Assembly (NCBI GenBank): GCA_001430755.1
Contig: CP013062.1
Span: 1,020,001 to 1,052,000 of the forward strand
DNA from: Candidatus Peribacter riflensis
Lineage (GTDB): Bacteria; Patescibacteriota; Gracilibacteria; Peribacterales; Peribacteraceae
DNA length: 32,000 bases
Reading direction: 5' to 3'
Part shown: positions 1 through 14,344 of the stretch, one piece after another
Position numbering within the stretch: the stretch's first letter is position 1
Layout of the letters: every line of letters starts with the position of its first letter
The notes under the pieces: generated by a model
What the model was told of the DNA's origin: nothing
What the model saw: only the letters and a program-made list of their open reading frames with translations
The model's database searches: none
Translations under genes and position numbers: made by a program

Positions 1-1401
<1,401 letters not shown>

Positions 1402-1578
1402 ACCAGGGAATTTCTCTGGCCCGGCATTTCTTCTTCGAAGAGTGCGCGGGAACGCATGCGCTGGCTGTGCTTTTAGGCCATCATGCATCCGATTGCCCGG
1501 GAGAGCACCGATGTCCCCAATTGGGGTCAACGACCGGAAGACTTCTCTACTCTGCAATGGTGTGATTTTGTATAAAAG

Positions 1579-2301
1579 GTGTATATATTTCTACACATGA
1601 CTCCTTTTGGACTGCCGCCTCCTGGGTCCCCAATTAAAAAAATACTCAATAGCATTTGTGACTATTCCGAAGATGACTGTTACGTAATTAGTACTGTGAT
1701 TCAGCAATCTGCTCTCGTAGAAAATATTCTAGGAACACTACTACATCGATTATTAATTACCAGGCACGGAAAGACCAAAGAAGAATTTGATAGCAGAGTT
1801 TCAGAAATAAATATTGCTATCTCGGAAATGAATATTTCCAAAAAAACTTGTTTGGTCCGAGCCCATTTAGCCAAAAAGAATGATTCTCTGGCTTCCAGAT
1901 TGGATCAAATCTTCAAAATTCGTGTTCCCATCGCACATGTTCATTATGGAATGCCTTTTGGTAAATCGATTCAAAAAGACGAAATTAAAATAGGTAGAAA
2001 AAGCATTTGGACGCCGGAAGGGCTACACGAATTTGTGCTTTCTTGCCATACAGTAGCTAAAGAGCTTATGGAAATTATTGGCGACAATCAGGAAAAGGAG
2101 TTAACGGATGCAAAAATTGAAAAGAAATTAATCGAATATACGAAAGAAAAGATCTTGAAGAAAAAGTGGTTGGGTGAAAAGGACAATACTCAATTGAGCG
2201 CGCTCTCTGAGAGAGAGAAACATCTGAATAGACTCATCGAAATGGAGGAACCTCGCAGTAAACGGGCAACAGAGAGTTTGAAAAATATGTTTCATTCCTG
2301 A
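1579..2301 (+). CDS. HEPN-like protein (MtlR/DUF4145-type helical domain with R-x4-H motif) plus a K/E-rich C-terminal coiled-coil; lies in an AT-rich island. ATG at ~1597 (MTPFG...) is a likelier start than the GTG at 1579
   Basis: 240-aa ORF fills an AT-rich patch (~1560-2330) that contrasts with the GC-rich flanks. Motif IFKIRVPIAHVHYG (R115-x4-H120, nt 1921-1938) is preceded by the amphipathic helix pattern (VISTVIQQSALVENILGTLLHRLL ... NISKKTCLVRAHL) typical of MtlR-like/DUF4145 HEPN domains. A TATATT box sits ~7 nt before the ATG. Confidence 0.55.
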   Translation: MYIFLHMTPFGLPPPGSPIKKILNSICDYSEDDCYVISTVIQQSALVENILGTLLHRLLITRHGKTKEEFDSRVSEINIAISEMNISKKTCLVRAHLAKKNDSLASRLDQIFKIRVPIAHVHYGMPFGKSIQKDEIKIGRKSIWTPEGLHEFVLSCHTVAKELMEIIGDNQEKELTDAKIEKKLIEYTKEKILKKKWLGEKDNTQLSALSEREKHLNRLIEMEEPRSKRATESLKNMFHS

Positions 2302-4797: not shown

Positions 4798-4824
4798 CAC
4801 CTTTGTTCCCTTCCCCACAATAGC

Positions 4825-5151
4825 ATGGTTGCATTCGTCCCCAATGAAGAATTCAAGCACCGAGAACGCGTCGAAGCGATGCGTACTGCCGATACCGCAG
4901 AGAGTACGAGCGGCAGCAAAACGATGGGCGGCCGCGAGGCGGTGACGCGAGCCATGGCTGCAACGCTCCTGCAGATCAATCAGCTCCGCGCCGTGCCTGG
5001 CATCGAGCTACACATCGTGGAGCAATTGAGGAGCGAAGCGAGTGCCCTTGAGCAGAAGAGCAGGGCGACGGAGGCAGACAATGCCCTCTTCGTCCAAGCG
5101 GAATCTATACACCGGATCGGCCAGCGCGCCATGGATCTCATCGCTGCCTGA
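4825..5151 (+). CDS. Hypothetical protein (108 aa), first gene of a 2-gene + strand cassette inside the suf locus
   Basis: ORF with a promoter upstream. Its stop is 2 nt before the next ATG. Helical-looking sequence with no recognisable domain. Confidence 0.45.
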   Translation: MVAFVPNEEFKHRERVEAMRTADTAESTSGSKTMGGREAVTRAMAATLLQINQLRAVPGIELHIVEQLRSEASALEQKSRATEADNALFVQAESIHRIGQRAMDLIAA

Positions 5152-5552: not shown

Positions 5553-5856
5553 GCGCACGGAGCGTCTTTTCTGCTTCTGCCCGTGCAGGCGACCCCGGCA
5601 TACTGGAATGCAATGATTCTGCGGCATCCTTGAGAACGGCCGGATTCTCAACATAGAGAAACTGACTCCACCCGTGCCCCGCCCTATTCATGAGCGCCTC
5701 GACCGCCATGCGGGCACCCTTACTCATGCTGAGCACGGCATCGGCCACCGGAACATTGCGCTTCATGAGAAGCTGAAATTCCTTTTCGAACAGAAGAGTG
5801 GGGTCGGGCAAATCGACGCCGCTCAGACGAAGGTTGAAGCTGCTACCATCATTCAT
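5539..5856 (-). CDS. Hypothetical protein (105 aa), predicted leaderless
   Basis: ATG at c5856 lies 6 nt downstream of a near-consensus TTGAGA-N16-TATAAT promoter. Converges on and overlaps 5154..5552 by 14 nt. Confidence 0.5.
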   Translation of the reverse strand: MNDGSSFNLRLSGVDLPDPTLLFEKEFQLLMKRNVPVADAVLSMSKGARMAVEALMNRAGHGWSQFLYVENPAVLKDAAESLHSSMPGSPARAEAEKTLRALTES

Positions 5857-5862
5857 GGCAAT

Positions 5863-5890
5863 ATTATAACATATTTTATGTTATTCTCAA
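5863..5890 (-). promoter_or_regulatory. Sigma70-type promoter TTGAGA-N16-TATAAT (extended TGT-TATAAT) 6 nt from the ATG; 8-bp inverted repeat in the spacer
   Basis: Minus strand: -35 TTGAGA (5885-5890), -10 TATAAT (5863-5868), 6 nt to ATG c5856. Inverted repeat ATAACATA-TTT-TATGTTAT (5866-5884). Shares the 10-mer ATGTTATAAT with the 3458-3486 promoter. Confidence 0.6.
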
Positions 5891-12694: not shown

Positions 12695-12733
12695 TGGCGC
12701 GCACTCCACCCGAAGAGGACGTATACTGAGGTC

Positions 12734-13135
12734 ATGTTGAAATTGCTCACGTTCGTCTGCTTTCTCGCCGCACAGGTCATCATCACCTGGTATGGGCACT
12801 TTCTGGGGAAAGTTCCGGCGCGCGGATCGGTGTTCGGCTGGTCCTATTCATCGCCAATTGCGGGGCTCCTCGTGACACTCATCGCGTTCATCTGGATCCC
12901 CGTCGTGATCAACCTGCTCTATGGGCTCGGCTTTCAGTGGGGCAACCGCGCCTTCGGGAGTTTTCTCGTGGTCATTGGGCTTTGGATCGCCGCAGCACCG
13001 ATCGCCGCACTCATCTTCAACTCCATCACTGTCGGCGAAAAGCCCGACGTGCCGCTGCTGATCGGGCTCCTCCTCATTACGACGGGTAGCATTCTGGTTG
13101 CGGCTCACCGGGAAATCGCCCTGCTCCTGCCATGA
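12734..13135 (+). CDS. Small integral membrane protein (about 4 TM)
   Basis: Hydrophobic segments throughout. TATACT (12722-12727) lies 6 nt before the ATG. Its stop overlaps the next ATG (ATGA). Confidence 0.7.
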   Translation: MLKLLTFVCFLAAQVIITWYGHFLGKVPARGSVFGWSYSSPIAGLLVTLIAFIWIPVVINLLYGLGFQWGNRAFGSFLVVIGLWIAAAPIAALIFNSITVGEKPDVPLLIGLLLITTGSILVAAHREIALLLP

Positions 13136-13508: not shown

Positions 13509-14261
13509 TTACTTCAGCTCGTAGATGAGCGAGACCGAGACTTGAATTTCCTGCTCGCCTGTAGGCACGGGGACGGAAGGCATGGGGGCCCCGCCGCCAA
13601 CGGCTTCCATCGTCACATTCGCCTTGCGGTAATCCATGTCTAAGGCGTAGCCGCCTCCTTCAGAGAATCCCTTGAGTCTCTTGATCTTCTTGCCCAGCTG
13701 GGCTGCAAGCTCCTGTGCCTTGACCTCCGCCTTCGCAATCGCCTTCGCGCGCGCGGCAGCACGCAGAGCCTCGGGATCATCCATGGTGAAATCCACGCCG
13801 CCAACCTGATTCACCCCTTCGGCCGTCACGGCCGCGAGCAGATCGCCGATCTTGTCCAAGTCCCGCACCTTCACATGCAGGGACTGTGTGGCCTGGAACC
13901 CGCGGGGAATCTGCCGACCTTCGTTCCAATCGTATTCCGGCTGCAGCGAGAGGGAATCCGTCGTGACATCCTTCTCTTCAATCCCCTGCTGTTTCACAAC
14001 AGCCACAATGCCTGTCATCTTCTCAGTGAGAAGCTTCATCGCCTGCTGCGCGCTCGATTGCCTCCCCGTCTGGACACCGAAACTCACGACAGCGATATCG
14101 GGCACCGCCGATGCCTTGCCGGTACTCTCAACGGAAATGGTCATGGGCGAGAAATCTCGCTGCTCAATGACCTTGCCTGTGAGGTAGAACCCTCCGGCAA
14201 CGACGATGAGAAGAACAGAAAGCCAGCAGGCCGGCTTGTTGGAACAACACGTATTTTCCAT
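13509..14261 (-). CDS. SIMPL/DUF541-family secreted or membrane-anchored protein
   Basis: N-terminal TM, then the typical SIMPL pattern (GKASAVPDIAVVSFGVQT...AMKLLTEKMTGIV...GFQATQSLHVKVRDLDKIGDLL...PTGEQEIQVSVSLIYEL). Confidence 0.8.
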   Translation of the reverse strand: MENTCCSNKPACWLSVLLIVVAGGFYLTGKVIEQRDFSPMTISVESTGKASAVPDIAVVSFGVQTGRQSSAQQAMKLLTEKMTGIVAVVKQQGIEEKDVTTDSLSLQPEYDWNEGRQIPRGFQATQSLHVKVRDLDKIGDLLAAVTAEGVNQVGGVDFTMDDPEALRAAARAKAIAKAEVKAQELAAQLGKKIKRLKGFSEGGGYALDMDYRKANVTMEAVGGGAPMPSVPVPTGEQEIQVSVSLIYELK

Positions 14262-14344
14262 GATGAGGAGAAGGGAAAGGAATTGTCATGATAGAGCATC
14301 GCGCCGAAAAAGGGTAGGGGGATGGAGCCGCTTCGCACTGCGCT

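Follow-up and report, generated by a model that had tools for sequence, protein, structure and literature searches.

The 16S rRNA gene at the start of this stretch of DNA raises the question of whether the ribosome of Candidatus Peribacter riflensis, a groundwater member of the class Peribacteria (Peregrinibacteria, candidate phyla radiation, CPR), has lost the CCUCC core of the anti-Shine-Dalgarno (anti-SD) sequence and, if so, what still constrains the 3' tail of its 16S rRNA. "The window" denotes here the whole 32,000-nucleotide stretch that was analysed, and the features located within it are collected in Table 1. Alignment to the Rfam bacterial SSU model reached the final position of the model (1533 of 1533) at window position 1402, and the 13-nt tail past helix 45 was found to read GAACACUUCCUUA, with CCUCCU absent. 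Compared with the E. coli tail it carries C1536U at window position 1396, and an A in place of U1532. The full gene occupies genome positions 1019938-1021402, scores 1462.6 bits across the full model and is the sole rrs match in a genome that consists of one complete 1,248,026-bp contig of 58.5% GC, so that there is no second copy able to carry CCUCC. The five published genomes of Candidatus Peribacter riflensis measure 1,248,071 +/- 217 bp with 58.5% GC and have single rRNA copies (PMC4736985). The lone 23S gene lies 173 kb from the 16S gene, the rRNA genes being unlinked, and a tRNA search of the window gave no match, including after the 16S gene.

Table 1. Features of the 16S 3' end and of selected start regions in the window (window coordinates).
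Feature	Position	Strand	Details
16S rRNA gene	1..1402	+	Rfam RF00177, 1363.8 bits, model positions 64-1533; gene begins 63 nt 5' of the window
3' tail, single-stranded, after helix 45	1385..1402	+	GGAUGGAACACUUCCUUA; DNA letters of 1385-1402, GGATGGAACACTTCCTTA
Anti-SD core CUUCC (CTTCC in DNA)	1395..1399	+	U at 1396 corresponds to E. coli C1536
Tail-trailer fold-back helix	1396..1410	+	UUCCUU (1396-1401) with AGGGAA (1405-1410), loop ACC; predicted -3.7 kcal/mol
Second trailer hairpin, CCAGGGA / UCUCUGG	1403..1419	+	Predicted MFE structure of 1385-1425 and of 1360-1425
Pyrimidine box CUUCCCC	4810..4816	+	-15 from ATG at 4825
Putative leaderless-type -10 box TATAAT	5863..5868	-	-12 from ATG at 5856
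Putative leaderless-type -10 box TATACT	12722..12727	+	-12 from ATG at 12734
Pyrimidine box UUUCCCU	14272..14278	-	-17 from ATG at 14261 (SIMPL/DUF541 gene)

Of the other genomes in the genus, all five with an rrs carry the same tail; it was also present in 22 of 62 Peribacteria species genomes among the matches listed (each read in 16S context), and on 67 metagenome contigs. The initial annotation, made from the window alone, had read CUUCC for CCUCC at this position; the end of the Rfam alignment, the letters of the tail, the tails of relatives and the single rrs copy all bear it out. Its further statement that an altered core is uncommon holds in general, although this very organism had already been printed as lacking a consensus anti-SD. 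The S4 table of Amin et al. 2018 (PLoS One 13:e0202767) enters Candidatus Peribacter riflensis as "no antiSD", giving its tail as GAACACUUCCUUA without an SD to match; its entry for GCA_001430885.1 gives tail GAACACTTCCTTA and TACACT as the top motif, and another Peribacteria genome is also tabulated. To the extent of that table, an altered anti-SD without SD use in this organism is therefore already known, and the core finding, being on record, adds little alone.

Start regions were analysed for 944 genes called with a self-trained hexamer model, a simple caller that takes the longest ORF and places some starts wrongly, and for a subset of 272 genes with an unambiguous start, in which the pattern was the same. 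Sites 100 nt upstream and internal in-frame start codons, both mostly coding sequence, served as decoys. Among the 944 genes, GGAGG occurred 15 times at -22 to -4 against about 30 expected (0.5-fold), GGAAG occurred 20 times in the same interval (0.9-fold), and neither motif had a positional peak upstream of starts. At the 272 unambiguous starts GGAGG was found 3 times against 11.7 expected, with G falling to 14-15% at -13 to -6 and C and U rising. SD-like 4-mers at -16 to -7 preceded 12.9% of starts, compared with 26.0% of sites 100 nt upstream and 23.5% of internal in-frame start codons. Motifs complementary to the tail, whether read as CUUCC or as CCUCC, were not enriched before starts and were about two-fold rarer there than at decoys, a deficit which may partly reflect composition and not avoidance, since the decoys are mostly coding sequence.

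Duplex energies gave the same picture. The mean energy of the organism's own tail with positions -20 to -3 was -1.56 kcal/mol, versus -2.90 and -3.12 kcal/mol at control positions, and substitution of the canonical tail gave equally poor pairing upstream of starts. When 50 kb of E. coli was passed through the same pipeline, the corresponding values were -6.71 versus -2.65 and -2.47 kcal/mol, and 88% of genes reached -4 kcal/mol or lower. The pipeline also detected AGGAG at 8-fold in a distant member of the class. Another genome (G040) had been considered as the SD-positive control for the energy test and was dropped in favour of E. coli, its own tail being non-canonical. The lack of SD sites, together with the leaderless signal described below, held in six Peribacteria genomes (this one and five further) that carry four different tails. 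The absence of SD sites that the initial annotation had noted for genes of the window, among them SufB, SecA, GltX and the ABC genes, whose names were confirmed, thus extends across the genome in motif counts, decoys and duplex energies alike. This is a lineage without ribosome recruitment by SD pairing.

A dedicated SD-dependent gene of the rpsU type known from Flavobacteria was also sought; the strongest tail-complementary sites were found to precede implausible TTG starts within upstream genes, and the candidate was rejected. A convincing AAGGAGGTGAC was present in two genes only, which is no more than chance. The products of these genes, at G000:C1:762708 (-) and 434516 (-), are a membrane protein of 93 aa and a protein of 285 aa; the canonical-type AAGGAGGTGAC is identical in both and lies at SD spacing, and the genes may be recent imports.

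Other signals were found in place of SD sites. Among the 944 genes a TAnnnT hexamer began most often at -12 (81 genes), -15 (52) and -14 (47), in forms such as TATAAT, TATACT, TACACT and TAGAAT, often with TGC in front. A box so placed was present at 23.0% of starts, versus 4.2% and 1.4% at decoys, and it was found in 4% of operon-internal genes (those abutting a same-strand upstream gene) versus 17-22% elsewhere. Relative to the predicted starts, this spacing is that expected for mRNAs that would be leaderless or have 2-3-nt leaders, in about a quarter of the genes. In leaderless-rich genomes (the 'group C' of GeneMarkS-2, for example Actinobacteria and Deinococcus) a -10 hexamer likewise ends 6-7 nt before the start in many genes. 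Leaderless-rich Actinobacteria and Deinococcus keep a canonical anti-SD and SD sites on their leadered genes; in Peribacter the leadered genes carry pyrimidine tracts instead.

These tracts are centred on TTCCC, which was found 90 times against 19.6 expected in the 944 genes, and its extension TTCCCC 43 times against 5.1. The motif starts peak at -15 to -13, the box spans -15 to -10, and the extended consensus is approximately CUUUCCCCCU, G-poor and C/U-rich, where the start regions of Bacteroidia are A-rich. The box was present at 19.5% of starts versus 7.0% and 6.4% at decoys. Operon-internal genes carry it just as often (20%) as other genes do, so that it is a signal at the level of translation rather than part of a promoter. 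A multi-domain S1 protein would be the most plausible candidate for its reader: one reading frame in the genome has four S1 domains and is probably bS1. Many genes, moreover, overlap or abut their upstream neighbour, and 46 gene pairs share a 4-nt overlap. The remarks of the initial annotation on ATGA overlaps and nearby -10 boxes were right, and its suggestion that initiation is largely SD-independent (leaderless or coupled) is supported by the motif statistics, the -10 boxes and the overlaps together. The initial annotation mentions neither the C/U-rich box nor the tail-trailer helix. For CPR bacteria, gene callers and expression work should be built on leaderless starts and pyrimidine leaders in place of SD sites.

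C/U-rich repeats were also seen before some starts. Four tandem YTTCCTTAC-like units lie at about G000:C1:1063925-1063966 (+), outside the window and directly before an ORF start at 1063967; they have the same sense as the 16S 3' end CUUCCUUACC and nearly the same letters. Further short C/U-rich tandem repeats, TCCTTCG in four copies and CCCTAA in three, stand before the starts at 655770 and 503031.

Tails of relatives were compared across 62 Peribacteria species genomes, these being the matches listed for a search pattern that covers tail and trailer and fixes four trailer positions. Among them the core with its preceding base read ACUUCC in 22, AUCUCC in 17, AUUUCC in 11 and ACCUCC in 7 (one with C at 1540), and more rarely GCCUCC (3), AACUCC (1) and UUUUCC (1). 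Canonical CCUCC is thus the minority state, in 10 of these 62 pattern-selected matches. The core switches among CCUCC, UCUCC, CUUCC and UUUCC, with positions 1535 and 1536 flipping repeatedly between C and U. The base at 1536 was found to vary together with the eighth base of the trailer: in 65 distinct sequences the pair was U-A in 34, C-G in 28 and another combination in 3, a degree of pairing reached in none of 500 shuffles. When CUUCC was fixed in the search and the trailer left unconstrained, GGGAA followed on 66 of 67 metagenome contigs and GGGAG on none.

A maximum-likelihood tree of 47 16S sequences (900 nt, tail excluded) was combined with parsimony and gave about 5 changes at 1536, 6 at its trailer partner and 8 at the unpaired position 1535, counts which are approximate owing to the short 900-nt alignment, weak nodes and three long branches. 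Inside a U-A clade there is one reversal to C-G, with supports of 1.0. Odd tails (CCUCU, CCGCC, CUCUCU) also occur in other families of the class, where the trailers were seen by inspection to match them. Purines are rare at positions 1535 and 1536, so that some constraint beyond the helix persists. In the Peregrinibacteria assembly G043, two 16S 3' ends were observed, with tails ACUUCC and AUUUCC (C11:80987-81014 and C14:33310-33337); this assembly is either a mixed bin or has two divergent rrs copies.

Across the clade the predicted fold-back helix has 6 bp, in which Y1536-U-C-C-U-U (1536-1541) pairs with A-G-G-G-A-R of the trailer, and 99.2% of helix cells are paired in the 65 distinct sequences. 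Only one of the six pairs varies, the outer pair at 1536. The loop is formed by A1542-C-C, so that the canonical mature 3' end would fall inside it. At the level of aligned sequences, these data demonstrate that the tail and the opening nucleotides of the trailer are kept complementary by compensatory change. A second predicted hairpin in the trailer is more stable than the fold-back helix and uses the same G run, so that the two are mutually exclusive; many relatives share its motif, CCAGG(G)...C(Y)CUGG, and in the folding model the two structures may form a switch. In many relatives the second hairpin is followed by a conserved CATGCKCTGG, which may be part of a leader-trailer stem. For the mature tail itself a GGAA-CAC-UUCC mini-hairpin was considered and rejected: ViennaRNA did not predict it, giving only a weak alternative fold (-2.9 kcal/mol, z -1.8), and, because A1532 is also found in relatives with C1536, it has no covariation.

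The proteins known to contact the tail were searched for in the complete genome. A PF01165 profile search gave no match for bS21. Era was not found: the best matches were both GTPase domains of one Der-like frame of 470 aa, and all KH domains lay in frames that correspond, by their size and remaining domains, to uS3, NusA and PNPase. YbeY was likewise not found in the complete genome. As the genome is complete, the absences of bS21, Era and YbeY are real at the sensitivity of the HMM searches, and they agree with CPR-wide losses given in published accounts, including Tsurumaki et al. 2022 (RNA 28:1041).

Taken as a whole, we regard as probable a reading in which C1536U is real and clade-wide, initiation is SD-less, the core is under relaxed selection and the tail is held by pairing with the trailer. 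With no mRNA pairing to serve and its known protein partners (bS21, Era and YbeY) gone, selection on the letters of CCUCC would have relaxed, and the C/U switching would be the consequence of this combination of SD-independent initiation and lost tail-reading proteins. What would still constrain the tail is the need to pair, in the precursor rRNA, with the trailer; on the covariation data the tail seems to be constrained by pre-rRNA structure and not by mRNA pairing. For the helix itself we infer a role in processing, quality control or permanent masking: it probably presents or protects the 3' processing site, or may hold immature subunits inactive.

Several other readings of the variant tail were weighed against this one. 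That it represents a sequencing or assembly error, or a decaying rrs copy, has a negligible probability, as nothing speaks for it beyond the general rarity of such tails, while the gene is the only rrs, scores well over the full model, shares its tail with the five congeners, the 22 listed species genomes and the 67 metagenome contigs, and is followed by a trailer in which the compensatory change is present. Were the tail a working anti-SD that had co-evolved with a variant SD, GGAAG, the five occurrences of AGGAAGT upstream of called starts (1.1 expected) could be its trace; GGAAG itself, however, stays at 0.9-fold without any positional peak across the SD window, the sites that pair best stand before doubtful TTG starts located within upstream genes, upstream duplex energies are weaker than at control sites, and Amin et al. 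report in their S4 table no matching motif for Candidatus Peribacter riflensis, so that we consider such a system extremely improbable. A different case can be made that C1536U is silent, the U wobbling with the G of GGAGG and permitting low-level classical SD use in some genes. The observed changes at 1535 and 1536 are all C-to-U transitions that keep G.U pairing, and the two genes with AAGGAGGTGAC have it at the correct spacing. Yet GGAGG is at half its expectation before starts, AAGGAGG occurs 4 times against 2.0 expected, pairing energy with the canonical tail is equally poor, and there is no rpsU-like dedicated SD gene, bS21 itself being absent; silent retention of the classical mechanism is therefore quite improbable.

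Two further readings accept the loss of SD pairing and concern the fate of the trailer. The mature 16S might keep at least the first 8 trailer nucleotides, its tail locked in the fold-back hairpin, so that the RNA would blind itself as Bacteroidia do with proteins; the 16S would then end after ...CCAGGGAA or after the second hairpin, whereas a helix confined to the precursor would leave an end at ...CCUUA. Favouring retention, the trailer sequence CCAGGGA varies no more than the rRNA itself among all family members that were sampled without trailer constraint, the helix is maintained by compensation, and YbeY, the usual 3' endonuclease, is absent, while the stem would halt 3' exonucleases. The competing hairpin CCAGGGA/UCUCUGG is nonetheless more stable, and a precursor-only helix accounts equally well for the covariation. 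None of the 67 metagenome contigs ends at a position resembling an RNA 3' end; all run past the gene and are uninformative on RNA ends. We hold retention to be unlikely, and give the same low credence to its broadest form, in which the anti-SD of Peribacteria would be only one strand of a cis-helix with the 16S trailer and the mature rRNA may keep the hairpin, RNA masking the docking tail once bS21, Era and YbeY were lost. A retained trailer could also take part in an SD system of inverted polarity, in which the UUCCC box of the mRNA pairs with GGGAA of the trailer. UUCCC is the exact complement of GGGAA, and in G009, where the trailer reads GGGAG, the top box is CUCCC (32 observed, 7.8-fold, versus 5.3-fold for TTCCC), compared with 4.6-fold for TTCCC and 2.3-fold for CTCCC in the present genome (G000). 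The flanks of the box, however, are CU...CCU and not the A...UGG predicted from the trailer, and there was no preference in G012, in G022 or in the independent reversal lineage G041 (2.0-fold for both TTCCC and CTCCC). The shift of box with trailer thus comes down to the single contrast between G000 and G009, and inverted pairing is judged very improbable. The reading preferred here accordingly remains that of a relaxed core held by pairing with the trailer in the precursor.

With respect to known systems, the organism belongs with the class described by Lim et al. 2012 and Amin et al. 2018 in having a tail without CCUCCU, no enrichment of a complementary motif, and a trait shared by a clade. 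It goes beyond the accessible part of the Amin et al. survey in two respects: TACACT, left uninterpreted there, is read here as the putative -10 box of leaderless genes, and the switching of the core among four states in Peribacteria with trailer compensation was not found there. The searchable literature contained no account of either the four-state core switching, the trailer compensation or TACACT as a leaderless -10 box, and a search on Peribacteria with Shine-Dalgarno gave no match. What is added here is the core switching, the covariation of 1536 with the trailer, and the absence of bS21, Era and YbeY. The anti-SD-lacking subgroup of Parcubacteria (Tsurumaki et al. 2022) resembles the present lineage in being CPR with reduced ribosomes and a 16S without CCUCCU. 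In the accessible part of that paper the loss of the motif is highlighted in Parcubacteria, and Peregrinibacteria appear only for missing ribosomal proteins; Peribacter, unlike that subgroup, has a full-length tail with point substitutions only.

The SD-blind ribosomes of Bacteroidia (Flavobacterium johnsoniae; Jha et al. 2021; NAR 2026 gkag239) share genome-wide SD-independent initiation, and there, as here, the importance of the tail appears to lie in 16S maturation rather than in the recruitment of mRNAs in general. Bacteroidia, however, keep a canonical anti-SD that is hidden by bS21, bS18 and bS6 and used in rpsU autoregulation, whereas in Peribacter the core is mutated to CUUCC and bS21, with rpsU, is absent. 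When the anti-SD is ablated in SD-blind F. johnsoniae, processing of the 16S is impaired, and this does not depend on bS21 (2026, PMC13000453). In B. subtilis the trailer AAGGA has been proposed to fold on the anti-SD UCCUU, forming a stem-loop that contains the 3' processing site (Baumgardt et al. 2018, NAR 46:8605, PMC6144821). That proposal is a suggestion without evidence in an SD-using organism with YbeY/YqfG, whereas in the SD-less Peribacter, which is without YbeY, repeated compensatory change supports the helix. By analogy with the F. johnsoniae ablation and the B. subtilis suggestion, a maturation role for the tail-trailer helix is plausible.

The clade is of use as a natural experiment on the constraints left on a 16S tail that no longer pairs with mRNA, and the C/U drift with trailer pairing kept supports the experimental hint that the anti-SD has a role in 16S maturation. 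If true, even as a helix of the precursor only, this would be the first comparative proof we have found of anti-SD nucleotides being selected for a structural role independent of mRNA.

Some additional observations were made on the rRNA genes and their surroundings. The 16S genes of two genomes of the same genus, G007 and G008 (L016 and L017), are about 1750 nt long compared with 1465 nt here, owing to an insertion of about 290 nt that is absent here. The 23S gene, which lies outside the window at G000:C1:1194029-1198017, measures 3989 nt against a model of 2925 positions, implying an insertion of about 1 kb. Directly after the rrs, window positions 1560-2301 (+) contain a 234-aa ORF (ATG at 1597) that had no Pfam match and was rejected by the composition-based gene caller; the segment forms an island of 37-40% GC in a genome of 58% GC and may be foreign DNA.
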